Positions 8,840-44,322 of a stretch of 64,000 bases of DNA are shown piece after piece. A program made the position numbers and the translations under genes. Source of the DNA: Longimicrobiales bacterium (GTDB taxonomy: Bacteria > Gemmatimonadota > Gemmatimonadetes > Longimicrobiales > Gaopeijiaceae); the NCBI GenBank assembly GCA_965249725.1, contig CBDFMQ010000002.1:416001-480000 (forward strand). Reading direction: 5' to 3'. The notes beneath the pieces were generated by a model. It did not search any database, was not told where the DNA came from, and saw only the letters and a program-made list of their open reading frames with translations. The number at the start of each line of letters is the position of its first letter. Positions within the stretch are counted from its first letter, which is position 1.

Positions 8840-8869
8840 CGTCGGGGTCGACGACCCCTCTCGTGCCGC

Positions 8870-9214
8870 CTACAGATCGAGGACGAGCTTCAAGCCTGCG
8901 TTGACATGGGCCATCAGCTCAGGAGTGATTCGCCCCGCTCGCTCCGAGAGATAGGCCTCGTCCAAGGCGACGATCTGCGTGACGTTGGCCACCGAGTCCT
9001 TGGTCAGGCCGCTTACTTTGGCCGGAAGAAGGACGTTGCCCGGAGCGTCCAGGAGTCGGGTGTTCGAGGTCAGGACGATGCCCAGAACGGTCCGTAGTCG
9101 GCTCCGGTTGAAGGAGTCTGCCTGCACTACCAGGAGGGGGCGACGAAAGCCCGGCTCCGAGCCACGGGGTGCATCGAGATCTGCCCACCACACCTCGCGG
9201 CGCAGTACTACCAC
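8870..9214 (-). CDS. PemK/MazF-family toxin
   Basis: WWADL..GSEPGFRRP.LVVQ..FNRS and GLTKDSVAN motifs; overlaps the upstream small gene. Confidence 0.9.
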   Translation of the reverse strand: MVVLRREVWWADLDAPRGSEPGFRRPLLVVQADSFNRSRLRTVLGIVLTSNTRLLDAPGNVLLPAKVSGLTKDSVANVTQIVALDEAYLSERAGRITPELMAHVNAGLKLVLDL

Positions 9215-9444
9215 TCGTCGGAACTCACACTTCTGGCCTGGGCGGTACGGAGCGTCGGGTCGATGCCGCTGGGTGCGTCCGCGAAGACATCGTTCAATCT
9301 GGAGGTAACGTCCTCGTCACGGTGCTTTGCCAGGTACTCGGCGACCGCCGTAGCGTAGAGCTTGCTTCTGGATAAGCCTAAGCGTTCTGCGAGGGCGTCG
9401 GCAGATGCGAAAAGGTCATCGGGGAGAGAGACGGCAGTTTTCAT
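9208..9444 (-). CDS. Ribbon-helix-helix antitoxin paired with the MazF-type toxin
   Basis: MKTAVSLPDDLF..ADALAERLGLSRSKLY RHH pattern, directly upstream of the toxin. Confidence 0.85.
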   Translation of the reverse strand: MKTAVSLPDDLFASADALAERLGLSRSKLYATAVAEYLAKHRDEDVTSRLNDVFADAPSGIDPTLRTAQARSVSSDEW

Positions 9445-9470
9445 ACTGGAAGTATACTACGGTATGACCA
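9445..9470 (-). promoter_or_regulatory. Probable leaderless promoter of the TA operon
   Basis: Minus-strand TATACT (9456-9451), 6 nt, then ATG; no SD sequence. Confidence 0.55.
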
Positions 9471-9619
9471 GTCACGACAACTCCCACCGAAGAGGCCAGG
9501 GGAGACCCCGAATTCCTTTGAATGCTAGCATATGCTCGCCCGCCCCACCCGAGTTCATGAGGCTCGGATAGGGCGGGCGTAGCCGGTCGCGACGGACAGG
9601 CTGTAGGGAGGACTCCCTG

Positions 9620-10072
9620 CTAGAGGGTCTGCTCGCGGATATCGAAGCTCGATGTCGAGGCATCACGCAGAGCCCGGAACACGACCACGGGCTGGCTGTC
9701 GCTCGAGAAGTGGATGTCGTCGGTCTGGAACGCCAGCCTCGCCTCACCGGCTGAGGCTGAGAGGAGCTCAGCTCCGGACCCGTCCGCCTCGAGATCGAGG
9801 TAATCGAAGCTCGAACGGTCCCAGGTCAGCACGACCTGGTATTCGCCCTCTCCCGCCAGCCGCTGACCCGAAATGGCCAGTTCCACCCGAACCATCTCAC
9901 CCGCTTCGGCCTGGGCGCTGGACACATAGAACGTGATTCCCTGGTCCGCCGACTGCACGGCGTCGGAGATACTCTCCGGCGCTATCACCGAGCTGTCGCA
10001 GGCCATCAATCCGGCCACCAGAGCCAATGCCATCGCACCCTGTCCGAGCCTTCTACCGTTCACGTTTTTCAT
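9620..10072 (-). CDS. Putative lipoprotein with a cohesin/Ig-like beta-sandwich domain
   Basis: Signal peptide with lipobox LMAC; alternating beta-strand pattern VRVELAI/YQVVLTWD. Confidence 0.65.
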   Translation of the reverse strand: MKNVNGRRLGQGAMALALVAGLMACDSSVIAPESISDAVQSADQGITFYVSSAQAEAGEMVRVELAISGQRLAGEGEYQVVLTWDRSSFDYLDLEADGSGAELLSASAGEARLAFQTDDIHFSSDSQPVVVFRALRDASTSSFDIREQTL

Positions 10073-10104
10073 GATGATCTCCTGGCAGGTGGAGCGGCGT
10101 CGTT

Positions 10105-10149
10105 GCCGTTCTCATACCACACACAGGAAACCGTGCACGGGCGTGCTCA
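10105..10149 (-). promoter_or_regulatory. 45-bp motif, copy A; candidate ECF-sigma promoter of the lipoprotein gene
   Basis: 37/45 ungapped identity with 22752-22796. Confidence 0.6.
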
Positions 10150-10228
10150 TCGGAGTCGGCCTTTCGCCGTCGGAAGTGAGTCGCTATCCCTCAGACGCCC
10201 TCCCCAGGGGCAGACCGAGGGGGCTCTG

Positions 10229-10801
10229 TTGAGCGATATGGACACCATCTCGCTGCTGCGCATGGCAGCGACCGGCGACTTACATGCTCGGGATCAGGCG
10301 TGGGCCCGTGTATATGACGAAGTACTGGTCGTCGCTCGCGCCCAAAGACGCCGCTGGAGTGGCGACTGGACCATGGAGACCCGGGTCCTCGCCAACGAGG
10401 TCTTCATCAAGGTCTTTGGTGACAATCCCCCGGAACTGAAGGACCGAAAGCACTTCTTCACGTTGTTGGCGAAGGCCGTCCGGCAGATTCTGGTCAACTA
10501 CTCGGAGGCACGCCGCGCCGCGAAGAGGGGAGGAGGACAGGCTCAAGTCACACTGTCGGAGGCGGGCGGCCTGTCGCTCGAGCCCGAGGTGTCGGATCGG
10601 ATCCTGGACCTGCACTCCGCGCTCAAGCGCTTCGAGTCGTTGGACGCGCGAGCTGCACGCATCGTGGAGCTTCGTTTCTTCGCTGGGCTGAACTACGACG
10701 AGATCGCGTCCGCATTGGGAGTATCACGCGCCACCGCGGTGCGTGACTGGGAAGCGGCCAAGCTCTGGCTCCATCGTGAGATGGGCGGGGCACCGGCATG
10801 A
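10229..10801 (+). CDS. ECF sigma factor of the Ser/Thr-kinase-associated type (TIGR02999-like)
   Basis: HFFTLLAKAVRQILVNY..AKRGGG; VELRFFAGL..EIA..LGVSRATAVRDW; TTG start at 10229 (SD GAGGGG) or ATG at 10238. Confidence 0.9.
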   Translation: MSDMDTISLLRMAATGDLHARDQAWARVYDEVLVVARAQRRRWSGDWTMETRVLANEVFIKVFGDNPPELKDRKHFFTLLAKAVRQILVNYSEARRAAKRGGGQAQVTLSEAGGLSLEPEVSDRILDLHSALKRFESLDARAARIVELRFFAGLNYDEIASALGVSRATAVRDWEAAKLWLHREMGGAPA

Positions 10802-11907
10802 CCTCCGACGAGGCGGCGTTGTGGCAGCGCGCCAGGGCCGTGCTTGAACTGACCCTCTCCCAGCCCGAAGATACGCGCCGTCGCTTCGTTCTCGAGACAT
10901 GCGACCAGGACCCGGAGCTGGTAACGGAGGTGCTATCGCTCCTCGAGTCCGAAGGTGGCTCGGAGACCTTCTTCGACCAGCTCGGTAGCGCCATCGACGA
11001 CGGCCTGGCCGGGGCAGAGGAGCCGGATCCTTGGTTGGGTCGATCTGTGGGCCCTTATCGGATTGTGGAGCTTCTCGGGCGAGGCGGGATGGGATCGGTA
11101 TACAAGGCCGAGCGGGAGGGAAGCTCGGGGGAGCCTCCTGTCGCGATCAAGATTCTCAGAAGCGAGTCGGAGCATCCAACCTCTCGCGAACGGTTCCTGC
11201 GTGAACGCGACAGACTTGCCGGACTCGACCATCCTTATATAGCCCGCATTCTGGATACCGGTGAGGGCGAATCAGGCGTCCCGTTCTACTGCATGGACCT
11301 CGTTGAAGGTGAGCGGATCGACCACTACGCGGATCGGCATCGCTTGAGCGTAGCACCGCGCATAAGGCTGATCCTCAAGGTGTGCGACGCCGTAGTCCAC
11401 GCCCACGCACGGCAAGTCATCCACCGAGATCTCAAGCCCTCGAACATTCTTGTTCGATCAACGGGCGAGCCGAGCCTGGTGGACTTCGGCATCGCCAAGC
11501 TCTTGGATCCCGTGACACAAGGTGACCCCACACTATCGTTGCAGGCGGCGGCCTACACTCCGGGTTATGCGAGTCCGGAGCACGTGGTAGGTGACTCCGT
11601 TTCTGCAGCCAGCGATGTCTATTCGCTGGGTGTGCTCCTCTACGTGGTCCTGGCGGGGGCGGAGCCTTCACTCAAGCGCAGTCTGGACCGGCAGTCACCC
11701 GCGGAGGTGCTACAGCTGAAGGGGGAAAAGGCGACGGCCCTGGCGGCGGCTCGTGCCGCGACCGTGGACGATTTGCTCGACACGTTCGAAGGAAGGCTCG
11801 GCGATGTGCTCTTGAAGGCTTGTCAGATGCGCCCCGAGCGGCGGTATCAGACGGTCGGTGAGTTGGTGCAGGCGCTGGAGAGCTACCTGGATTCCGTGAA
11901 AGACTAG
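10798..11907 (+). CDS. Hanks-type Ser/Thr kinase, cognate to the ECF; no TM helix or sensor domain
   Basis: GRGGMG, VAIK, HRDLKPSN, DFG, YASPE, DVYSLG; ATGA overlap with the sigma gene; ORF ends right after the kinase domain. Confidence 0.92.
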   Translation: MTSDEAALWQRARAVLELTLSQPEDTRRRFVLETCDQDPELVTEVLSLLESEGGSETFFDQLGSAIDDGLAGAEEPDPWLGRSVGPYRIVELLGRGGMGSVYKAEREGSSGEPPVAIKILRSESEHPTSRERFLRERDRLAGLDHPYIARILDTGEGESGVPFYCMDLVEGERIDHYADRHRLSVAPRIRLILKVCDAVVHAHARQVIHRDLKPSNILVRSTGEPSLVDFGIAKLLDPVTQGDPTLSLQAAAYTPGYASPEHVVGDSVSAASDVYSLGVLLYVVLAGAEPSLKRSLDRQSPAEVLQLKGEKATALAAARAATVDDLLDTFEGRLGDVLLKACQMRPERRYQTVGELVQALESYLDSVKD

Positions 11908-11942
11908 TGGCAGCCCGCACACATTAGGCGCATGTTAAGGCG

Positions 11943-14366
11943 ATGTCTGATCCCGTTACCCGCCTGAACGCAGCCCTAGAAGGCCGCTACGCCATCGAGC
12001 GTGAGCTGGGCGAAGGCGGGATGGCTACGGTGTACCTGGCCAAGGACCTAAAGCACAACCGCAACGTCGCGCTCAAGGTGCTTAAGCCAGAGCTCGCGGC
12101 GGTAGTCGGCGCCAAGCGGTTTCTCGCCGAGATCGAGACCACCGCGAACCTCCAGCACCCCCACATCCTGCCGCTCTTCGATTCCGGCGAGGCAGATTCG
12201 TTCCTCTTCTATGCCATGCCGTACGTGGAGGGAGAGACCCTGCGGGAAAAGCTGGACCGCGAGCATCAGCTCTCCGTGGACGAGGCGGTCAGGCTCACGA
12301 CGAATATCGCTGAAGCCCTGGAGACCGCTCACGAACAAGGCGTCGTCCACAGGGACATCAAACCCGCCAACATCCTACTAAGCCGGGGTAGCCCCCTCGT
12401 CGCGGACTTCGGGATCGCCCTGGCGGTCAGTTCGTCGGGTGGCGATCGCCTGACCGAGACCGGCTTGTCCATGGGCACGCCCTACTACATGAGCCCCGAG
12501 CAGGCCGCTGGGGAGAGCCATGTCGACGCGCGCAGCGATATCTACTCGCTGGCGGCGATGCTCTACGAGATGCTGGCGGGTGAGCCGCCCTATACGGGCC
12601 GGACCGCACAGGTCATCCTGACCAAACGAATCACGCAACCGGTCCCGTCGGTGCGAGACATCAGGGATAAGGTGCCCGCGAGCATCGACGGGACGCTCAA
12701 GCAGGCCCTTTCCCCGGTACCTGCCGATCGGTTCTCTACGACCGGCGAGTTCATCTCCTCGCTGACGACGTTGGTGGTGAGCGAAGCGAAGAAACCACTT
12801 CCCTGGAAGCCGTGGGCGGCAGCGGGTGTCGCGGCGACCGTGGTGAGCGCCATCGGGATCGGACTCGCGCTCACCCGCTCCGGCGGTGTGGGTCCCGCAG
12901 GGGTAGATGGCCGCGTGGGGGAGGACGGCCAGTCAACCGCGGAAGGCACGGCAACGGTCGCCAGCCAGGCCGGTGCCCCCGTAGAGATCATCGATCCGAA
13001 CTCTATAGTCGTGCTGCCGTTTCTGGACCTGTCGGGCCAGGATCAAGAGTTCATGTCGGACGGCATTGCCGCAGAGCTACTCACCCTGCTCGCCCGGATC
13101 CCGGGCTTGAAAGTTCCCTCACGGACCAGCGCGTTTTCTTTCAAGGATAAGGATCTGACCATTCCGGAGATCGCCGCGCAGCTCGGCGTCGCCCACGTGC
13201 TGGAGGGCACGGTGCGGATGGCGGGCGACGTCGTTCACATTACTGCGACGTTGATCGATCCACGGTCCGACGAGCAGCTCTTCTCCGAGGACTACGACCG
13301 CCCGCTCGACGACATCTTCACGGTTCAGGACGAGATCGCGGCCAGGGTCGCGTCCGAGCTCAGGATTGAGTTGCTCGGTGAGCTACCGCGGCAGCGCGAG
13401 ACCGACCCTGAGGCGTACAGGCTGTTCCTGCAGGCGAGCCATATCGCCGACTTGGGGTTGGTGGAGAGCCTCGAGACAGCCATCCCAATGTTCGAACGTG
13501 TGCTCGAGATCGACCCTAATTACGCTCCGGCCTACGTTGAGCTCTCCGCTGCGTACCGTGATCGGGGCTACAATGGCCCACGGTCCTATGAGGAGGGTCT
13601 CCAGATGGCTGTCAGCGCGGCGGAGCGTGCCGTCTCTTTGGACCCCGACTTTGCCTACGCTCATGCGATCCTCGGATCGACCATGGCTATGGGTGGCGAC
13701 TGGGAAGGCTTGAGACACGTCGAGCGGGCACTCGAGCTGGCGCCCACTGACACGGAGGTCCTCATGTTAGTGGGAATCAACCTCTGGGCTCTGGATCGTA
13801 TGGAAGAAGCCATCTTGGCGTTTGAATACGTTACAGAGCTCGACCCCCTGTATGGGAATAATTTTTACAACCTCGGCAACGCCTACATGTTGGCGGGTCG
13901 TCATGAGGACGCGGCGGCGACGCTCCGCACGCTATTGGAGCTGAATCCGTCGGAGCCCGATGCGCCTGGCGACCTTGGCCTGGCGTTGCTAGGGATGGGT
14001 GAGCTTGACGAGGCCCTGGCAATCGCTGAGTCGGCGACGGACGCTATACGCCGCCTTCATCTCTCGGCGCTGGCCTATCATGCACTTGGGCGACAATCCG
14101 AGTTTGAGACTGCGTTTCAAGAACTGCGAGGGGGATGGGGCGAATCGTTCCCGACCGTCATCGCAAGCGTGTATGCCTACACGGGAGATGTAGACGCTGC
14201 CTTCGAAATCATCGACCAGGTGGAATCTCTGGACCCCACTACCATCTTCGATCCGCTTTTCGCCAATCTTCATGACGATCCGCGCTGGACGGCGTTCCGT
14301 GAAAGAACAGGCCAGTCCGAGGAAGAGCTCGCGGCGATTCAGTTCGAGGTCAGTCTGCCGGGGTAA
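11943..14366 (+). CDS. Receptor Ser/Thr kinase: kinase, TM helix, TolB-N-like domain, TPR repeats
   Basis: Intact kinase motifs; hydrophobic segment WAAAGVAATVVSAIGIGLAL; SIVVLPF..DGIA..SRTSAFSFK; TPR-like repeats. Confidence 0.9.
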   Translation: MSDPVTRLNAALEGRYAIERELGEGGMATVYLAKDLKHNRNVALKVLKPELAAVVGAKRFLAEIETTANLQHPHILPLFDSGEADSFLFYAMPYVEGETLREKLDREHQLSVDEAVRLTTNIAEALETAHEQGVVHRDIKPANILLSRGSPLVADFGIALAVSSSGGDRLTETGLSMGTPYYMSPEQAAGESHVDARSDIYSLAAMLYEMLAGEPPYTGRTAQVILTKRITQPVPSVRDIRDKVPASIDGTLKQALSPVPADRFSTTGEFISSLTTLVVSEAKKPLPWKPWAAAGVAATVVSAIGIGLALTRSGGVGPAGVDGRVGEDGQSTAEGTATVASQAGAPVEIIDPNSIVVLPFLDLSGQDQEFMSDGIAAELLTLLARIPGLKVPSRTSAFSFKDKDLTIPEIAAQLGVAHVLEGTVRMAGDVVHITATLIDPRSDEQLFSEDYDRPLDDIFTVQDEIAARVASELRIELLGELPRQRETDPEAYRLFLQASHIADLGLVESLETAIPMFERVLEIDPNYAPAYVELSAAYRDRGYNGPRSYEEGLQMAVSAAERAVSLDPDFAYAHAILGSTMAMGGDWEGLRHVERALELAPTDTEVLMLVGINLWALDRMEEAILAFEYVTELDPLYGNNFYNLGNAYMLAGRHEDAAATLRTLLELNPSEPDAPGDLGLALLGMGELDEALAIAESATDAIRRLHLSALAYHALGRQSEFETAFQELRGGWGESFPTVIASVYAYTGDVDAAFEIIDQVESLDPTTIFDPLFANLHDDPRWTAFRERTGQSEEELAAIQFEVSLPG

Positions 14367-17149
14367 TGTCAGATCCCGTCGCCCGCCTAAACGCAGCCCT
14401 CCAAGGCCGCTACGCCATCGAGCGCGAGCTGGGTGAGGGCGGCATGGCCACCGTCTATCTGGCCGACGACATCAAGCACGAGCGCAAGGTCGCCCTCAAG
14501 GTCCTGAAGCCCGAACTAGCAGCCGTAGTCGGTGCCGAACGCTTCCTCGCCGAGATCAAGACCACCGCAAACCTGCAGCACCCCAATATCCTGCCGCTAT
14601 TCGATTCCGGCGAGGCGGACTCGTACGTCTTCTACGTGATGCCCTACGTGGAAGGGGAGAGCCTTCGGGACAAGCTCGACCGCGAGCACCAGCTCCCCGT
14701 GGACGAGGCGGTCCGGATCGCGAGCGAGGTCGCCGAGGCCCTCCAGGCCGCGCACGAGCAGGGCGTCGTCCACCGCGACATCAAGCCTGCCAACATCCTA
14801 CTCAGCCGGGGTCGCCCGCTCCTAGCAGACTTCGGGATCGCGCTTGCCGTGAGCTCGGCAGGGGGCACCCGCCTCACCGAGACGGGGCTCAGCGTCGGCA
14901 CACCACACTACATGAGCCCCGAGCAGGCGGTGGGCGACCGGACCACGGGACCGTCCACGGACATCTATGCCCTGGGCTGCGTGCTCTACGAGACGCTGGT
15001 CGGAGAGGCTCCGTACACCGGCACCACGGCGCAGGCGATTTTGGGCCGGATCATCACCGGTGAGCCGGTATCGGCCACGAAGCACCGGCCGTCAGTGCCG
15101 GCCAACGTGGACGCGGCAGTCAGGAAGGCGCTGGAGAAGCTGCCGGCAGATCGCTTCGGCAGTGCCCAGGGCTTGGTGCAGGCTTTGGCCGACCCCGGCT
15201 TCCGGCACACGGTGGTGGGTGGGGACGAGCCTGCCGAGGTGGAGCCACGCCCACTCTCGCGTAGGGCCCTCCCTTGGGGGCTCACGGCGGTACTCGCGGT
15301 CACGCTGGTGGTCCTCACCTCGAGACCACCGGTGCAACCAGCGCCCGAAGTCGTGCGTTTCACCGTACCGATTGCGCAGGGTGACACGACCTACCTGGGT
15401 GGCCCATTCACCTGGAACTGGGGGGTGCCCGTTAGCACGTCCGTCGCGATGTCGCCGGCCGGGGACCTACTGGTCTATGCGGCGCGGGGCGGACCAGATG
15501 CCCCGCTGACGGACGGACGGCTTTATTCGCGCCGATTCGATCAGGACGTCGCCGAGCCGATCGCGGGAACGGAGGGGGCCCAAAGTCCGTTCTTTTCGCC
15601 GGACGGTGCCTGGATCGGCTTTTTCGTCGAGGCGTCGCTGAAACGAGTCTCCATGGTTGACGGTACGCTCGAGACGATCGTAGCGGAGGCTCCACTCGGG
15701 GAAGGCAACCCGTCTGGTGACCCTGGCAGCGGACCTTCCTTAGGCGCGACCTGGGGAGACGACGGAACGATCGTGTTCAGCGGCGCGGGTCTTCTGTACC
15801 GGGTCGCGGCCACTGGGGGAGAACCCGAGTTGTTCGCCGAGGGGCTCCTGCCCGGCGCCGGGGATTCTGTATTCTATCGCCGCCCCGAGATCCTACCGGG
15901 AAGCCAGGCAATCCTGCTGCAAGCCATCCCATCCCAATCCCGCGATCCCGAAGACGCCGAGATCGTTGCGCTGGACCTCGCCGGGGGCACGCGGAGGACC
16001 GTGCTGACCGACGCCATGGACCCGCGCTACGTGCAGACGGGACATCTGCTATTCGTGCGCCAGGGGACACTCATGGCGGTCCGGTTCGATCCGAACCGTC
16101 TCGAGGTGCAGGGCCAGCCCGTGATCATGATCGAGGATGTCATGCACGCGGTGCTCATGCCCAATGGCCAGTCTGAGACCCACGCCGCTCAGGTAGCCGT
16201 ATCGGGGTCCGGTCACCTGGCCTATGCCCGCGGCGGTATTTTTCCAGAGGAGCGCAATCGTGTGGTGCGCATCACGAGTGCGGGCGACACGGTTCCCCTC
16301 GAGACGGACGGTCGTGACTATCTGAGCCTTATGGTGTCCCCCGACGGAAGCCGGCTCGCCTTCATGGCCTTCGAAGGATCAGGCTTACGGCTCGGCGTCC
16401 ACGACCTAGGTCGTGGTGTGACCCAACTCCTGAACGGTCTCTCCGACGAGCACCCCATTTGGAGCCCTGATGGCCAATCGCTGGCAGTTTATTCAAACGA
16501 TGACGGGCACATGTATCGCCGCGCGGCGGACGGCAGCGGCGAGCCGGAGCGGTTGGCGCCCTCGGACAGAAGTCAGTACCCGTCTTCGTGGTCCTCCCAA
16601 GGGGTCATCGCGTTTCTGAGCGAAGAATCGCCGGAGTCTGGTGAATCGGATATCTGGCTGCTGCCGCCGGGCGAGGAGCCTGCGCCCTTTTTCACATCAG
16701 GGTCGGTGGAGTGGGGACCGACTTTTTCCCCGGACGGCCGGTGGCTCGCGTATTCGTCTGACGAAAGCGGGCGGCGGGAGGTTTACGTACGACCGTACCC
16801 GGGGCCGGAACCTGCAACGCAGATCTCCGGCGATGGCGGATTGAACGCGGCGTGGTCGCCCGATGGTCGGCAGATCTACTACGTACAAGATATGGAGGGG
16901 CCCCGACCCTGGGTCCTGATGTCTGTAGATGTGACCCCTGGCGATGAGCTTCAGGCGGGTCGCCCGGTGCCGCTCATCGATTCCTGGATCTTCGGAATGC
17001 AAGGAGTGCGAGGCTATGACGTCTTCCCTGACGGCTCGTTTGCCACGTACACGGCGGACATTCGCCCTTATCTAGAGCAGCACGGGGTTACCGAGCTGCA
17101 CGTCGTGCTCAACTGGTTCGAGGAGTTGAAGGAGCGGGTGGGGAATTGA
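14366..17149 (+). CDS. Receptor Ser/Thr kinase: kinase, TM helix, PD40/TolB-like beta-propeller
   Basis: GEGGMATV, HRDIKPAN, DFG, GTPHYMSPE; TM LPWGLTAVLAVTLVVL; repeated (F/W)SPDG; TAATG overlap with the previous gene. Confidence 0.92.
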   Translation: MSDPVARLNAALQGRYAIERELGEGGMATVYLADDIKHERKVALKVLKPELAAVVGAERFLAEIKTTANLQHPNILPLFDSGEADSYVFYVMPYVEGESLRDKLDREHQLPVDEAVRIASEVAEALQAAHEQGVVHRDIKPANILLSRGRPLLADFGIALAVSSAGGTRLTETGLSVGTPHYMSPEQAVGDRTTGPSTDIYALGCVLYETLVGEAPYTGTTAQAILGRIITGEPVSATKHRPSVPANVDAAVRKALEKLPADRFGSAQGLVQALADPGFRHTVVGGDEPAEVEPRPLSRRALPWGLTAVLAVTLVVLTSRPPVQPAPEVVRFTVPIAQGDTTYLGGPFTWNWGVPVSTSVAMSPAGDLLVYAARGGPDAPLTDGRLYSRRFDQDVAEPIAGTEGAQSPFFSPDGAWIGFFVEASLKRVSMVDGTLETIVAEAPLGEGNPSGDPGSGPSLGATWGDDGTIVFSGAGLLYRVAATGGEPELFAEGLLPGAGDSVFYRRPEILPGSQAILLQAIPSQSRDPEDAEIVALDLAGGTRRTVLTDAMDPRYVQTGHLLFVRQGTLMAVRFDPNRLEVQGQPVIMIEDVMHAVLMPNGQSETHAAQVAVSGSGHLAYARGGIFPEERNRVVRITSAGDTVPLETDGRDYLSLMVSPDGSRLAFMAFEGSGLRLGVHDLGRGVTQLLNGLSDEHPIWSPDGQSLAVYSNDDGHMYRRAADGSGEPERLAPSDRSQYPSSWSSQGVIAFLSEESPESGESDIWLLPPGEEPAPFFTSGSVEWGPTFSPDGRWLAYSSDESGRREVYVRPYPGPEPATQISGDGGLNAAWSPDGRQIYYVQDMEGPRPWVLMSVDVTPGDELQAGRPVPLIDSWIFGMQGVRGYDVFPDGSFATYTADIRPYLEQHGVTELHVVLNWFEELKERVGN

Positions 17150-19923
17150 TGACAGATCCCGTCAGCCGCCTAAACGCAGCCCTAGAAGGCCGCTACGCCA
17201 TCGAGCGCGAGCTGGGCGAGGGCGGCATGGCCACCGTCTACCTGGCCGATGACCTCAAGCACGAACGTAAGGTCGCCCTCAAGGTCCTGAAGCCCGAGCT
17301 GGCCGCCGTGGTTGGAGCCAGGCGCTTCCTCGGCGAGATCAAGACCACCGCCAACCTGCAGCATCCGAACATCCTGCCGCTCTTCGATTCCGGGGAAGCC
17401 GACTCGTACGTCTTCTACGTGATGCCCTACGTGGAGGGAGAGAGCCTGCGGGACAAGCTCGACCGTGACCACCAGCTCCCCGTGGACGAAGCGGTCCGGA
17501 TCGCGAGCGAAGTCGCCGAGGCCCTCCAGGCTGCCCACGAGCAGGGCGTCGTCCACCGTGACATCAAGCCCGCCAACATCCTGCTCAGCCGGGGCCGCCC
17601 GCTCGTCGCCGACTTCGGGATCGCGCTGGCCGTGAGCTCGGCGGGGGGCACCCGCATTACCGAGACGGGACTGAGCGTCGGCACGCCCCACTACATGAGC
17701 CCAGAGCAGGCCGTGGGCGACCCGACCACGGGACCCTCCACGGATATCTACGCCCTGGGCTGCGTGCTCTACGAGACGCTGGTCGGAGAGGCTCCGTACA
17801 CGGGTACCACCGCACAAGCGATTCTGGGCCGGATCATCACGGGTGAGCCGGTATCGGCTACCAAGCACCGGCCGTCGGTGCCGGCCAACGTGGACGCGGC
17901 AGTCAGGAAGGCTCTGGAAAAACTGCCGGCAGATCGCTTCGGCAGCGCCCAAGGCTTGGCGCAGGCTCTGGCCGACCCCGGCTTCCGGCACACGGTGGTG
18001 GGTGGGGACGAGCCTGCCGAGGTGGAGCCACGCCCACTCTGGCGTAGGGCCCTCCCTTGGGGGCTCACGGCGGGACTCGCGGTCACGCTGGTGGTCCTCA
18101 CATCGAGACCACCGGTGCAACCAGCGCCCGAAGTCGTGCGTTTCACCGTACCGATTGCGCAGGGTGACACGACTTACCTGGGTGGCCCATTCGCCTCGGC
18201 CTGGGGGGTGCCCGTTAGCACATCGGTAGCAATTTCGCCGGCCGGGGACCTACTGGTCTATGCGGCGCGGGGTGGACCCGACGCCCCGGAGACGGACGGA
18301 CGGCTTTATTCGCGCCGATTCGATCAGGACGTCGCCGAAGTGATCGCAGGAACGGAAGGGGCCCAAAGTCCGTTCTTTTCGCCGGACGGTGCCTGGATCG
18401 GCTTTTTCGTCGGGACCTCGTTGAAACGAGTCTCCATGGTTGACGGTACGCTCGAGACGATCGTAGCGGAGGCTCCACTCGGGGAGCTCGAAACTGGTAG
18501 TGGACCTCCCTTGGGGGCGACCTGGGGAGACGACGGAACGATCGTGTTCAGCGGCGCGGGGACTCTGTACAGGGTCGCGGCCACTGGTGGCGAACCCGAA
18601 TTGCTCGCCGAGGAGCTCCTGCCCGGCGCCGGGGATTCTGTATTCTATCGCCGCCCCGAGATCCTACCGGGAAGCCAGGCAATCCTGCTGCAAGCCAACT
18701 CATCCCAATCCCTCGATCCCGAAGACGCCGAGATCGTTGCGCTGGACCTCGCCGGGGGCGCACGGAAAACGGTGCTGACCAACGCCATGGACCCGCGCTA
18801 CGTGCTGACGGGACATCTACTATTCGTGCGCCAGGGCACACTCATGGCTGTCCGGTTCGACCCGGACCGTCTCGAGGTGCAGGGCCAACCGGTGATCATG
18901 GTCGAGGATGTCATGCACGCGGTGTTCATGCTTAACACCCGTAGCGAGACTCAAGCCGCTCAGGTCGCCGTGTCGTCGTCCGGTCACCTGGTCTATGCCC
19001 GCGGCGGTACCTTTCCGGCGGCGCGTACTAGTGTGGTGCGCATCACGAGTGCGGGCGACACCGTTCCCCTCGAGATGGACGTTCGTCACTATATCAACCT
19101 TAAGGTGTCCCCCGACGGAAGCCGGCTGGCCTTCATGGCCAGGGAAGGATCAGCCTTCCCGCTCGGTGTCCACGACCTAAGCCGAGGCGTGACCCAACTC
19201 CTGAACGGTGTCTCCGACATAAATCCGATTTGGAGCCCTGATGGCCAATCGCTGGCAGTTGTTTCAATCGATGACTACAACATGTATCGCCGCGTAGCGG
19301 ACGGCAGCGGCGAGCCGGAGCGGTTGGCGCCCTCGGACAGAAGTCAGTACCCGTCTTCGTGGTCCTCCCAAGGGGTCATCGCATATGTGAGCGAAGAATC
19401 GCCGGAGTCTAGAGAACACGATATCTGGCTGTTGCCGCCGGGCGGTGAAGCTGCGCCTTTCTTCACATCAGGGTCTGAGGTTATGGGCCCGACGTTTTCC
19501 CCGGACGGCCGGTGGCTCGCGTATGAGTCTGACGAAAGCGGGCGGTTCGAGGTTTACGTACGACCGTACCCGGGTCCGGAACCTGCAACGCAGATCTCCG
19601 GCGGCGGCGGAACGAACGCGGCATGGTCACCCGATGGTCGGCAGATTTACTACGTACAATGGCCTGAGGACTCGCCCCCACCGGGGGTCCTGATGTCTGT
19701 AGATGTGACCCCCGGGGATGAGTTTCAGGCGGGTCGCCCGGTGCCGTTCATCGATTCCTGGGTCGTCGCAACGAGTCCAGTGCGAGGCTATGACGTCTTC
19801 CCCGATGGCTCGTTTGCCACGCTCGTGGTGGACGATCGTCCCTATCTCGAGCAGAACGGGGTTACCGAGGTGCATGTCGTCCTCAACTGGTTCGAGGAGT
19901 TGAAGGAGCGGGTGGGGAACTAG
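17149..19923 (+). CDS. Receptor Ser/Thr kinase with beta-propeller; tandem paralog of 14366-17149
   Basis: Colinear with the previous ORF over its full length; TGATG overlap places the ATG at 17149. Confidence 0.92.
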   Translation: MTDPVSRLNAALEGRYAIERELGEGGMATVYLADDLKHERKVALKVLKPELAAVVGARRFLGEIKTTANLQHPNILPLFDSGEADSYVFYVMPYVEGESLRDKLDRDHQLPVDEAVRIASEVAEALQAAHEQGVVHRDIKPANILLSRGRPLVADFGIALAVSSAGGTRITETGLSVGTPHYMSPEQAVGDPTTGPSTDIYALGCVLYETLVGEAPYTGTTAQAILGRIITGEPVSATKHRPSVPANVDAAVRKALEKLPADRFGSAQGLAQALADPGFRHTVVGGDEPAEVEPRPLWRRALPWGLTAGLAVTLVVLTSRPPVQPAPEVVRFTVPIAQGDTTYLGGPFASAWGVPVSTSVAISPAGDLLVYAARGGPDAPETDGRLYSRRFDQDVAEVIAGTEGAQSPFFSPDGAWIGFFVGTSLKRVSMVDGTLETIVAEAPLGELETGSGPPLGATWGDDGTIVFSGAGTLYRVAATGGEPELLAEELLPGAGDSVFYRRPEILPGSQAILLQANSSQSLDPEDAEIVALDLAGGARKTVLTNAMDPRYVLTGHLLFVRQGTLMAVRFDPDRLEVQGQPVIMVEDVMHAVFMLNTRSETQAAQVAVSSSGHLVYARGGTFPAARTSVVRITSAGDTVPLEMDVRHYINLKVSPDGSRLAFMAREGSAFPLGVHDLSRGVTQLLNGVSDINPIWSPDGQSLAVVSIDDYNMYRRVADGSGEPERLAPSDRSQYPSSWSSQGVIAYVSEESPESREHDIWLLPPGGEAAPFFTSGSEVMGPTFSPDGRWLAYESDESGRFEVYVRPYPGPEPATQISGGGGTNAAWSPDGRQIYYVQWPEDSPPPGVLMSVDVTPGDEFQAGRPVPFIDSWVVATSPVRGYDVFPDGSFATLVVDDRPYLEQNGVTEVHVVLNWFEELKERVGN

Positions 19924-19931
19924 GCAGACCC

Positions 19932-22632
19932 CTACCGAATCGTCACCCCGATCTCCGCCTGTCGCTTGTGGAACGCGAGCGAGGACACCCCGAACGTCGG
20001 CTGATCCAGAACGGTCCCCATCCCAGCTGGATCGAAGTTCGTCCGATTCAGGAGGTTGTAGACGCTGAACTGTACGCCGGCTGTTCGGCCGTCTGCGACG
20101 TCGAAATTCCAGCCCAGTCTCATGTCGACACGTAGGAAGTTCGGACCTTCGTGGCCGTTTCTGGGCTCTCCTGGAGGACGGTCTGCATTAATGCCGTCCC
20201 TGTTCAAGTCGTCGACGACGATGGCCGTGTAAGGCCGACCGGAGGAGTACACGAGTTTCCCCGACACCGAGAGGCCGAACGGATAGTCGAACCCCCCGGT
20301 AGCGACGATGCGGTGCCTCTCGTCCCACGCCGCTCGTCCTTTGAGACCCGAGAAGTCCGTCACCTCGGGGTCGAGCGGGCCTTGAATGAAGTCGTTCCAG
20401 GCATCGCTCGTGTTCTGGCGATCCGCGAGGGTGTAAGCGAGGGTCATCCAGCCGCGATCGAGAGTCTTACTCGCCTGCATCATCAGGAGCTTGGCGTCCG
20501 CCTCGCCTTCGGTGAGCATCTGAAACAGATCCCCGTGGTCGGGATACTTCCGGACCTCATAGTCGGCGTCCCACGTGTTCAGGGATCGCTCCATCGGGAT
20601 GTTCCGGCCTTGAATCACCAGGCCGTCGACACGAAGCACGACTCCGCCCGTCACCTCCTGCTCAAATCCGAGCGAAAACTGCCTCGTCATGGGGGTCTTG
20701 AGTTCAGCGGCATTGGGCCAGTGGAGCTCGCCGAAGAAGAGGGGATTGTCCCGAAGCAGCTCGTCCACGTTGAGCGAGGCGGGTTCGGGGATCCCACCAA
20801 ACAAGAAGGCGCCGGAATGGGACTCCAGGCCGTCGCCTAGCGAATGCTGCGGCAGGGCGTCGTAAAAGATGCCGAATCCGCCACGGATCACCGTGCTACC
20901 ATCCTCCGCCGCATCCCAGGCAAAACCGAGTCTCGGCCCGATGTTGTTCTTGTCGACGGGGCGTGGTGTAGTGCGAATGAACGGAAGTTGTCCCGCCAGG
21001 GGCGACACGTACCCCTGGTTCGTTCCGTTGGTCTCGATCTCGTAGCGTAAGCCGATGTTCAGGGTCAGCGACGGCGTGGGATTCCATTCGTCCTGGGCGA
21101 ACACCGCTACTTGGGTATTCTGCGACACCGTGCCGATCAGTCCGGATCCCACAAGTGCGAACTCGGGGTCCACGGCTTCATCGGAGGGAAAGAAGAAGAG
21201 GCCGTCTTCAAGGATGTGGTATCGGGCGTGGTTGTCCTGCCAGCTTACCTGTGTCCCAAGCTTGATGCGGTGCGTCCCCGAGGCACCGGTCGCGACGAAC
21301 GACAGGTCCTCGATCAGTTCGATCCGAGTGTAGTTCGTCGGGCCCCACTCCGGAACCGGTCCGACGCAGATGGATGGATAACAAAGTGTTGGACCAGCAT
21401 CCGCGATCCGACCTTCATTGAAGTTTCGGTGGATCACGTGGAACCGCGCCTGGTTCACCATCCCGCCACCCAGAGACCACCGATGCGTGAGCAGAGCACC
21501 GTGCAGATCCGATGAGAGCAAGAGGCCTGTCGATGGGCTGGCCGGGGGGTCGTCCGCACCGACTCCGACAACCTTCTCCGCGATCTCGCCGGTGTATCGC
21601 AGGCTCAATTCGTGGGTGTCGCTGATCCTGTGATCCAGGCGCGCGAACATCAGATTGTCGGTGAACGGCGTCTTGAAGGTCCCGTTGACCCCGGGTATTG
21701 GGCTGGCCGTGTTGATGGTGGCGAAGTTGTTCTCCACCTTCCGTTCCATGGCCATGAAGAAGTGCGTTCGGTCCTGAGCAATCGGACCGCCGACGGCGAA
21801 GCCCCAGTGCGAACGGCTGAAGTCCGGTTTCGTTTCTTCGAAATGGCCGAGGGCCGTCATCTGGCGGCCTCGGAAGAGCCCGAAAGCCTCGATCTCAAAC
21901 TCGTTCGTACCCCGACGGGTGACGGCGTTGACGACGCCGGATGCCGTCCGCCCCAGCTCCGCGGAATAGGACGTCTGGATGACCTCGAACTCCTGAATGG
22001 CGAGTAGAGGTACTCCGCCGGTCACGTCCCCGAACGCCGGCTCAGTAAAGTCGCCACCGTCCACGAGCACACCCATGGATTGAGCGTTCAACGCTCCGAC
22101 GGAGATTTCGGTGCCGAGGTTCGTGTACCCTACGCCCGGCCCGGTGGTCGCGCCGGGCGCGAGGGCCGCGAGGTCAATGAAGCTGCGGGACTCCTCGGGG
22201 AGGCGTTGGATCATCTCTTGATCCATCGCGAACGCAACGTCGGCGTCGGTGGAGGCGACCAGAGTGCGGGGAGCCAGGACCCGAATACCCTCCAACTCGA
22301 GGGCGCTGACAGCGACGGTGAAGTCCAGTGTCAGCGTCTTGCCGATCGGGAGCGCGACGTCCTCTTGGGCGGTCGATTCCAAGCCGATGCGGCTTGCGAG
22401 AATGTCGTAGCGCCCCGGGGGGAGCCCGGTCAGCCAATATCGTCCCGTCGGCGTCGTTGCCGCCTCATACCGGAAGCCGGTGGCCACGTTGGTCGCGGTG
22501 ATCTCCACAGCGGACAGCTTCGGAGTCTTGTACCACGCCCGTGAGTTCTGCTGTGGCGGTTTGGCCGAGGGCTGGGATGCTGGTGGCTGCCAGCAGCAAA
22601 GAGACCGCTAGAATGGGTCGTAACTGACGCAT
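19932..22632 (-). pseudogene. TonB-dependent receptor (Oar-like) with a frameshift near the 5' end; pseudogene or sequence error
   Basis: Main ORF 22508-19932 has plug motif IQEFEV..YSAELGR..GVVNAVT and barrel motifs QDEW/LNIGLRYE/PRLGFAWD. The signal peptide MRQLRPILAVSLLLAATSIPALGQ starts at 22632 in a different frame. Confidence 0.8.
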
Positions 22633-22751
22633 GGCGGGATTCCTTTTTTAGGTGGTTTCCACTGCGGGGTGGAAACCGTTGTGTCTAGGGTGTGCGGCTC
22701 CGGTGGGGATAGCAAGAAAGCTACGTTCTCTGCGACGACTCAGATCCCATC

Positions 22752-22796
22752 GCCGTCCCCATATCACACACAGGAAACGGGGTAGGGGAGTGCTCA
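22752..22796 (-). promoter_or_regulatory. 45-bp motif, copy B; candidate ECF-sigma promoter of the TonB-dependent receptor gene
   Basis: 37/45 ungapped identity with 10105-10149; same orientation relative to its downstream gene. Confidence 0.6.
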
Positions 22797-22870
22797 CGGC
22801 CGTATAGCGTGCCCTCTTTCGGCCCAACTCGCCCGTGGCACTCCGCGCACACTAGGGACATTTTGAAGCG

Positions 22871-23467
22871 ATGCCCGATCCCCGATTGCTAGATACCGAG
22901 CTTCGCGAAGAGCCGCTGACCAGTCTGGCTGCACATGCCGAGATCTCCATCGCCTTTCAGGGGGACCGCGTCCTGATCCCCAGCACCGAGCCAGGAGGTC
23001 TCGAGGCACTGACTCTCGTGGAGGTCCTCCAAGAGCCTCCCTATATGAATGACTATGATGCCATCCCCGGGAACGACCCACTGGACTGGCCTCGCCGCTT
23101 CGATACATCCGGTTGGGCTCTGATCTCGGCGTGGCTTGGCGGCGAGCGGGTTGGTGGCGTCGTCATCGCTTACTCGACCGAGGGTGTCGATATGCTCGAA
23201 GGCCGCTTGGACCTCGCCGTGCTCTGGGACTTCCGCGTGGCGCCTGAAGTGCGCGGCACCGGGGTAGGGGCGGCACTCTTCGAGGCCAGCGAGGAATGGG
23301 CGCGAAGCAGGGGCTGCATCGAGCTGAAGGTGGAGACGCAGAACATCAATGTGCCCGCCTGCACGTTCTACGAGAGGCAGGGCTGCGAGCTGCGCGCGAT
23401 CGATCGATTCGCCTACCCAGACGTACCCGACGAGATTCAACTACTCTGGTACAAACGGCTTACTTAA
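22871..23467 (+). CDS. GNAT-family N-acetyltransferase (streptothricin acetyltransferase-like)
   Basis: VAPEVRGTGVG acetyl-CoA motif; VETQNINVPACTFY; LLWYK. Confidence 0.85.
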   Translation: MPDPRLLDTELREEPLTSLAAHAEISIAFQGDRVLIPSTEPGGLEALTLVEVLQEPPYMNDYDAIPGNDPLDWPRRFDTSGWALISAWLGGERVGGVVIAYSTEGVDMLEGRLDLAVLWDFRVAPEVRGTGVGAALFEASEEWARSRGCIELKVETQNINVPACTFYERQGCELRAIDRFAYPDVPDEIQLLWYKRLT

Positions 23468-43700: not shown

Positions 43701-43808
43701 TCACTCCGGCACCAACCGCTTGGTGGCCATGCCGCCCTCGCCGAGCTCACGCTCGATGGTGTAGCGGCCCCCAAGGGCGGCGTTCAGGCGGGTGACGGGA
43801 CCGGACAT
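43701..43808 (-). pseudogene. 35-codon receptor-kinase remnant (family N-terminus fused to a C-terminal-like tail)
   Basis: MSGPVTRLNAALGGRYTIERELGEGGMAT|KRLVPE*. Confidence 0.75.
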
Positions 43809-44322
43809 CAGTTGCCATGCGCTGGCGAAGCTCCTCGGCGAGTGCGATCCCGAAGTCGGCGACGAGTGGCTCACCCTGTGCACTCAGGAGGATGTTGGCC
43901 GGCTTGATGTCGCGGTGGACCACGCCGTTCTGATGTGCGTAGTCGAGTGCGCCCGCCACCTTCTGCGTGATCGCCAGGGCGTCGTCCACGCCGAGTTGTT
44001 TCTTGCGGTCGATGCGATCCCTGAGGGACTCCCCTTGCACGTGGGGCATGACGTAGAACAGGAACGAGTCAGCCTCGCCGGAATCGAACAGCGGCAGGAT
44101 GTGCGGGTGCTGGAGGTTGGCGGTGGTCTCGATCTCAGCCAGGAAGCGTTCGGCACCCACGACCGCGGCCAACTCGGGCTTGAGGACCTTGAGCGCGACG
44201 TTGCGGTTGTGCTTCAGGTCCGTGGCGAGATAGACGGTGGCCATGCCGCCCTCGCCCAGCTCGCGCTCTATGGAATAACGGCCTTCGAGGGCTGCGTTCA
44301 GGCGGGTGACGGGATCAGGCAT
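43808..44322 (-). pseudogene. Internally deleted receptor Ser/Thr kinase
   Basis: Kinase subdomains I-VII up to DFGIALA join directly to EELRQRM; subdomains VIII-XI are absent. Confidence 0.85.

Follow-up and report, generated by a model that had tools for sequence, protein, structure and literature searches.

Organization of the Gene Cluster

The region considered here, referred to as the window, is a stretch of 64,000 nucleotides (nt) from a Longimicrobiales bacterium of the Gemmatimonadota (contig CBDFMQ010000002.1, positions 416,001 to 480,000), in which a sigma factor of the extracytoplasmic function (ECF) group ECF43 is clustered with four protein kinases, a lipoprotein, and a TonB-dependent-receptor-like outer-membrane protein. 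The kinases are called K1 to K4, the lipoprotein LP, and the family to which K2 belongs the "K2 family"; these labels are our own. The sigma factor gene (10238..10801, plus strand; 187 amino acids, aa) overlaps at its 3′ end the start of K1 by an ATGA (10798–10801). K1 (10798..11907, plus strand; 369 aa), a soluble Hanks kinase, comprises an N-terminal helical extension (approximately residues 1–80) and a kinase domain, immediately after which it ends, as described in the initial annotation. It is followed on the plus strand by three membrane kinases: K2 (11943..14366), with a kinase domain, a transmembrane (TM) helix, a domain that we take to be TolB-like, and TPRs; K3 (14366..17149), with a kinase domain, a TM helix, and a PD40 beta-propeller; and K4 (17149..19923), a tandem duplicate of K3 with the same architecture. 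The domain and TM scans agree on this arrangement (TM scores of 2.06, 1.86, and 1.62 for K2, K3, and K4), which bears out the first reading of their C-terminal domains. The overlap coupling attributed to all three kinases is limited to K2/K3 and K3/K4, with K1 and K2 separated by 35 nt. LP (9620..10072) and the TonB receptor (19932..22632), both on the minus strand, bracket the cluster, and no anti-sigma gene was seen within it, both as first reported. Scans for sigma-70 promoters (4 versus 2.3 by chance) and terminators (7 versus 6.3) stayed at chance level.

Comparison with related genomes shows that the conserved unit consists of the cohesin-fold lipoprotein, the ECF43-type sigma factor, and a soluble kinase of approximately 370 aa (K1). 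The notion that the cluster is a conserved system holds for this unit, and K2 to K4 lie outside it.

An ECF43-Type Sigma Factor Lacking the Canonical Phospho-Threonine

The sigma factor scores 144 bits against TIGR02999 (cut-off 126), also matches PF07638, and is the only ECF43-type sigma factor found by a search of the host genome. With its kinase at the +1 position and no anti-sigma factor, it resembles EcfK of Xanthomonas citri and EcfP of Vibrio parahaemolyticus, which are TIGR02999/PF07638 sigma factors paired with the kinases PknS and PknT, respectively. Phosphorylation of EcfP and EcfK takes place on residue three of the motif STTA/QATE, a position held by Thr in 88% of ECF43 sigma factors (PMC8999054; PMC13147305). 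On the contrary, the sigma factor in the window reads ETRV where ECF43 has QTTA/STTA, and the canonical phospho-Thr position is Arg. Among 42 sigma factors of its clade, gathered at E ≤ 1e-60 with a profile that contained the motif columns, this position is Arg in 29, Gln in six, His in four, Gly in two, and Ala in one, and Thr in none (0/42); in the 35 canonical ECF43 rows used for comparison, it is Thr in 32, Ser in one, and Ala in one, with one row unparsed (Ser/Thr in 33 of the 34 readable). The first motif position is acidic in 41/42 (40 Glu, one Asp, one Gly), the second is Thr in 39 and Ser in three, so that Thr/Ser48 is present in 42/42, and Thr45 is invariant (42/42). The position of Thr105 is Ser/Thr in just 25/42. 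Because the canonical residue is Arg here, a phospho-Thr switch at that position, initially proposed by analogy with EcfP and EcfK, cannot, judging from the sequence, work for this sigma factor.

In the sigma tree, the 13 clade members with DNA context form a single clade (support 99/94), at the base of which are the long-kinase members L050, whose kinase is an 856-aa protein with a TM helix and TPR, and L064 (partial), together with L049 and L062. All members with a short kinase fall in an inner clade (100/97), as do L048, L060, and L061, which are nested beside L046 (100/100). The clade is rare: with no more than 10 candidates per genome being scored, it was found in 8/314 genomes of the family at E ≤ 1e-50. 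No ECF43 sigma factor was found among solved structures.

Conservation of the Short Soluble Kinase

Unlike PknS and PknT, K1 has neither a TM helix nor TPR; it carries no hydrophobic tail (score −0.05) and no sensor. A single TM helix is found in 87.8% of ECF43 kinases. All features of an active Hanks-type kinase (the P-loop, the Lys-Glu pair, the HRD..N loop, and the DFG and PE motifs) are present in the K1 sequence, as GRGGMG, K118, E136, HRDLKPSN, DFG, and SPE.

One explanation of these features is decay, in which K1 is a recently truncated, deteriorating copy and the cluster an accidental accumulation of genes at an insertion hotspot. The island that carries the cluster is missing from both same-genus genomes, the TonB receptor gene is frameshifted, and the canonical relatives of K1 bear a TM helix and TPR, all of which fit this explanation. 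However, the short form is kept across at least five genera at 40–58% identity with intact catalytic motifs, and LP and its promoter are conserved. Short kinases with a stop of their own were found at L031/L057, L032 (the same stretch as G196), L044, L046, L059, and L092. The kinase tree covered 30 of the 37 host-genome kinases, with two rows passed over by the motif parser, and the six short kinases placed in it group in a single clade (0.993) next to the canonical ECF43 kinases. The nine closest single-domain relatives of K1 (P0002–P0010) are 343–380 aa long and score 298–440 bits; the best long relatives score at most 280 bits, except for one 1355-aa protein (330 bits, 39% identity), and among the 61 relatives long frames account for nearly all remaining matches at E ≤ 1e-45. 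Among the kinases paired with sigma factors of this clade, one TM helix with an extracytoplasmic TPR region was found only in the basal L050 and is absent from the K1 clade. We also considered whether the short K1 could stem from an assembly error and rejected this, since contigs from other studies (runs X1, X4, and X8) cover 9400–11987 with 0–1 differences and include the K1 stop. The decay explanation is thus largely refuted for K1, and as an account of the locus it can be given hardly any weight. The short kinase is an exception in the wider family and the rule in the K1 clade; K1 is a conserved soluble form and not a broken copy, which settles in its favor the doubt, raised at the outset, that it was merely a truncated TM and TPR kinase.

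Predicted Docking of K1 on the Sigma Factor

The pairing of K1 with the sigma factor, first suggested by gene overlap, was also returned by complex modeling, in which the pair scored 0.61 and the best of three controls 0.00; the mark used for this score is reached by 116 of 157 solved pairs and by 2 of 215 mismatched pairs. The model runs share at least 54% of contacts, the partners have a predicted local distance difference test (pLDDT) value of at least 75, and the confident contacts are solely between K1 residues 5–70 and sigma residues 33–37, 85, 112–147, and 169–183. The model supports binding in which the N-terminal helices of K1 dock on sigma region 4. In the host genome, this docking extension occurs in K1 only. 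As in other ECF43 kinases, it spans approximately 80 aa; its docking residues are also conserved in the canonical ECF43 kinases, and its profile matches PknS 1–364 (PDB 9EED) from residue 6. The 81 N-terminal residues of PknS are unresolved in the crystal, and the N-terminal segment is said there only to "may play a functional role" (PMC13147305). If the model is correct, this segment of ECF43 kinases gains a candidate job, namely sigma docking.

In holoenzymes of the sigma-70 family, the surface of the region-4 C-terminal helix contacts the beta-flap. The predicted interface covers this helix, which is consistent with an alternative in which the sigma factor, with an acidic residue regained at Glu47, needs no phosphorylation to be active and is kept from RNA polymerase by the K1 helices until phosphorylation of K1 (by itself or in trans) or its turnover frees it. 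Loss of the canonical site together with Glu/Asp at the first motif position in nearly all clade members points the same way, as does EcfK, which retains an acidic residue and is still functional as T51A (PMC13147305). However, the invariance of Thr45 and Thr/Ser48 and the retention of the catalytic motifs are as expected of a substrate and its kinase, and the docking residues are shared with canonical kinases whose role is activation. An anti-sigma role for K1 seems improbable.

The Lipoprotein, the Promoter-Like Motif, and the TonB Receptor

LP is a 150-aa protein without a Pfam family, with a lipobox (LMA-C25) whose Cys is invariant in 6/6 aligned homologs. Its structural model (pLDDT 75) is a cohesin-like beta-sandwich, with cohesin modules as the top Foldseek matches (E 1.4e-4). 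Homologs are present in 9/314 family genomes, and the match in G103 is a different, 635-aa protein.

As first noticed, LP and the TonB receptor share an upstream stretch, which is 45 bp long and 82% identical and contains one promoter-like site each (10119..10150 and 22766..22797, both minus strand). The shared pattern occurs twice in the window against 0.01 expected, and genome-wide only these two occurrences were found at ≤4 mismatches. A bipartite motif, RTGA[G/T]CAS-N12/13-TCC[T/G]GTG[T/C]GT, lies upstream of 10/10 LP homologs examined, including that of L044, where LP is 5 kb from the 5′ end of the sigma gene. A matrix built from 10 sites of other genomes ranks the sites upstream of LP and the TonB receptor first and second in the 4.16-Mb genome (30.6 and 28.2 bits); the next site scores 19.3 bits, and three shuffles of C3 gave maxima of 20.7–23.0 bits. 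With a 12-site matrix, three further matches were found (34.2, 25.5, and 32.8 bits), each upstream of an LP homolog (L081, L092, and L093). The strict pattern was matched in 3/5 genomes with the module and in 0/5 others, and the basal loci L049, L050, L062, and L064 score at most 13.5 with no LP seen. The proposal that the regulon is encoded alongside is borne out to the extent that LP and the TonB receptor are the only strong carriers of the conserved motif in the genome; no third site rose above the shuffled background as a sign of autoregulation or of further strong regulon members.

The TonB receptor (PF13620, PF07715, and PF25183) has a 5′ frameshift, its signal-peptide ATG (22632) being out of frame with the 858-aa open reading frame in the window allele. 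Run X1 carries the same allele. In runs X4 and X8, the stretch 22508–22632 (minus strand) is longer by 8 letters, which fits an intact frame (124 + 8 = 132), the place of the insertion being deduced from a difference at 22524. Because the contigs of two other studies carry these 8 letters, the gene is polymorphic between alleles. Its orthologs (one in G196 and two in G288; 3/314 genomes) lack the upstream motif and adjoin TolB-like/TPR proteins; the adjoining protein is a BTAD regulator in G196, whereas those in G288 are kinases. Since these orthologs without the motif have such neighbors, the receptor appears to belong to a second module and to have acquired its promoter in this lineage. More generally, the partners of this receptor family are TolB-like/TPR membrane proteins that carry either a kinase or a BTAD regulator as their inner domain (L073 3366–8712, L075 3509–11399, and L076 2839–7853), and such a pair may constitute a trans-envelope signaling module. 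An RNA run (X19; a small share, from contigs of a related strain with differing letters) partly covers LP and the TonB receptor; as the library may contain DNA, the missing cover over the sigma factor and K1 was not used.

Membrane Kinases and Their Genome-Wide Family

The host genome encodes 37 kinases, 28 of which belong to the K2 family by motif, most with a TM-like segment. In the kinase tree, K2 to K4 fall inside this family, which has 25 more members elsewhere in the genome, and they lack the docking extension. They thus belong to an expanded receptor-kinase family of the Gemmatimonadota (kinase and TM helix followed by a PD40 propeller or a TolB-like/TPR region), and what sets the locus apart is the placement of three of them after an ECF43 pair. 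With a nucleotide identity of 89.5%, K3 and K4 stem from a recent tandem duplication and may be passengers of the island. In G011, the 19 kb examined around a K2 ortholog (65% identity) contain no sigma factor, K1, LP, or TonB receptor. Elsewhere, nine kinases lie within 25 kb in G050:C5 and three in G060:C1, with no ECF43 or LP match. Given that K2 to K4 are three of 28 family members, that the family forms sigma-free arrays, that the G011 ortholog is solitary, and that the G196 module has no second kinase, the initial view of K2 to K4 as dedicated, interchangeable receptors is not supported in that form, and their being dedicated inputs to K1 is unlikely.

The arrays just mentioned are tandem arrays of K2-family kinases (L066–L067, G050:C5:1-25300, eight copies; L068, G060:C1:1877000-1885000, two copies), each headed by a related kinase of another type (440–475-aa frame), and a similar trio occurs in G044:C13; they may represent a separate kinase-array system. 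A 191-aa fragment of a K2-family kinase in the window (43747–44322, minus strand) is probably a pseudogene.

Proposed Mechanism and the Relay Alternative

On balance, the cluster is probably a rewired ECF43 module in a composite island, with K1 setting its own activity and receiving at most opportunistic input in trans. The N-terminal helices of K1 would, as the model predicts, clamp sigma region 4 and the linker end, and the tethered kinase domain would phosphorylate the sigma factor at a non-canonical site, most likely the invariant Thr48 or Thr45 beside the lost site, or linker Thr105/Ser107; EcfK uses linker phosphosites too (PMC13147305). LP would then be transcribed by the active sigma factor from the bipartite promoter, joined in this lineage alone by the TonB receptor, as the conservation of the motif suggests. 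The activity of K1, which is sensorless and without a fixed partner, most likely depends on autophosphorylation, on its expression level, and on phosphatases; truncated PknS is known to autophosphorylate without a stimulus (PMC13147305). Membrane kinases present in the cell might optionally boost K1 in trans, and a loose input of this kind is plausible, though less likely than not. K2 to K4 would have arrived with the second module, a TolB-like/TPR kinase placed tail-to-tail with the TonB receptor, together with the duplicated propeller kinase; as inputs to K1 they are possible without being obligatory.

Several observations weigh against this interpretation. At 4/6 informative short-kinase loci (the window, L058, L044, and L092), another kinase is present no more than 6.5 kb away. 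This count leaves out L059 as too short, includes L058 on the basis of a sigma factor and a partial K1 matching L031/L057, includes L092 although its contig shows no sigma factor, and has two of its four from a single genus; the corresponding figure for canonical ECF43 pairs is 4/30 (p = 0.014). Truncated PknS fails to complement a pknS deletion (PMC13147305), which implies that a sensorless kinase may need extra input. As for the output, G274 and G303 have LP and the motif, and no sigma factor of the clade was found in these genomes, which are 80–84% complete; the motif TGAGCA[C/G]...TCCTGTG[T/C]GT differs from the promoter predicted for ECF43, with GTC at −35 and CAG at −10; and the assignment of the motif to this sigma factor, which presumably reads it, is correlative. 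Finally, the profile used to gather the clade sigma factors included the very columns in which they differ.

The nearby kinases raise the alternative of a relay cascade, in which K2-family membrane kinases, chiefly of the TolB-like/TPR type, trans-phosphorylate the activation loop of K1, which serves as an adaptor onto the sigma factor; in its strict form, the three neighbors K2 to K4 are the dedicated inputs. A Ser/Thr is present in the activation loop, seven residues ahead of the TP motif, in 15/15 short kinases. The second, motif-bearing LP copy of G262 lies 290 nt upstream of a K2-family TM kinase (L081), and the TonB receptor, usually paired with K2-like proteins as in G196 and G288, has acquired the promoter here. 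There is also a precedent in Myxococcus xanthus, where the cascade Pkn8 → Pkn14 → MrpC leads from a membrane Ser/Thr kinase through a soluble kinase to a transcription regulator (PMC6213207); its target is a CRP-type activator, which is inhibited, and the target here is a sigma factor. However, a conserved linkage of an orthologous receptor kinase to the soluble kinase was not found. Receptor kinases do recur near the module, as first suggested, but they are not orthologs: the neighbors fall into three families with 35–38% identity, namely a K2-family TolB-like/TPR kinase without a TM helix in L058, a multi-TM kinase in L044, and a GAF kinase in L092. No second kinase was seen near the module in G196 (50-kb contig) or at the G262 sigma locus, and the K2 ortholog in G011 stands alone. 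Moreover, kinases cluster regardless of the module, with 7/33 other host kinases outside the island and 35/81 kinases in four other genomes having such a neighbor; set against these two backgrounds, the 4/6 count gives p = 0.04 and p = 0.4, respectively, and its enrichment thus varies with the background chosen.

The evidence from fused proteins bears on both sides. In L048, L060, and L061, the sigma factor is paired with a kinase whose N-terminal helices best match the L046 short kinase (40–44%) and whose kinase domain is placed within the K2 family, and the complete L048 protein continues into a TM helix and a TolB-like/TPR-type region. Because the kinase domain is of the K2 family and the N-terminus of the short-kinase type, one sublineage has, to judge from its domain make-up, regained a sensor by a domain swap in which the docking helices were kept and fused to a K2-family receptor kinase. 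The fusion speaks for a relay; it shows, however, the kinase of K1 replaced and not phosphorylated. Taken together, a relay is a tentative possibility, and the self-set module remains the preferred reading. The trees suggest that the sigma motif changed first, that K1 then lost its TM helix and TPR, and that the sensor of the one sublineage was regained last.

The TolB-like/TPR neighbor kinases do not group together in the tree, and their co-evolution with the module was rejected on this ground. In L092 (3–1145), a gene for a GAF and kinase protein lies directly upstream of the short K1-type kinase on a 3.6-kb contig without a sigma factor. In G262 (L046 13087–14526 and 7527–9107; L081 11259–12791), a kinase-less PD40 propeller fragment occurs 1.5 kb beyond the short kinase, and similar-looking ankyrin-type genes lie beside both LP copies.

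The Genomic Island

The whole cluster is carried by a 14.5-kb insertion between hslU and gcvT (8840..23384). In the same-genus genome G001, hslU directly abuts gcvT and the island is absent, and in G002, also of the genus, another insert of 3.7 kb occupies the site. The insertion also contains a toxin-antitoxin pair, a MazF/PemK-type toxin gene with a small upstream partner, at its left edge (8870–9444, minus strand), which is likewise present at this site in G002, and a GNAT acetyltransferase gene at its right edge (22871–23467, plus strand), divergent from the TonB receptor.

Relation to Known Systems and Implications

The module descends from ECF43 and probably works like ECF43, but it lacks two of the defining features. 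It further differs from EcfK/PknS and EcfP/PknT in having its own promoter motif, a conserved cohesin-fold lipoprotein as target, and a host in the Gemmatimonadota. No paper showing the variant was among those listed in literature searches on ECF43, TIGR02999, Gemmatimonadota kinases, and soluble kinases with ECF sigma factors, although the survey of >900 ECF43 members (Iyer et al., 2020) and the supplements of PMC13147305 may include some of its sequences. Sigma factor phosphorylation is known from few tested pairs, all of which combine a membrane kinase with a single canonical threonine; the present clade has lost both features and kept the pair. It thereby shows that the kinase-sigma switch can be rewired, and its three genes form a system whose promoter is ready for use in a reporter.

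It is also tempting to speculate, although we consider it doubtful, that K1 is a plug-in adaptor, whose helices lock onto and mask region 4 and whose activation loop takes phosphate from the receptor-kinase family of approximately 30 members, with the sigma factor as the output node bearing a shifted phospho-site. If so, the system would be a eukaryote-like cascade from many receptors through a relay kinase to a transcription factor, the fusion in L048, L060, and L061 would represent its hard-wired form, and the docking helices would be the portable part that routes any kinase to an ECF43 sigma factor. Input in trans, if it occurs, would provide the first output for the large and unexplained receptor-kinase family of the Gemmatimonadota.

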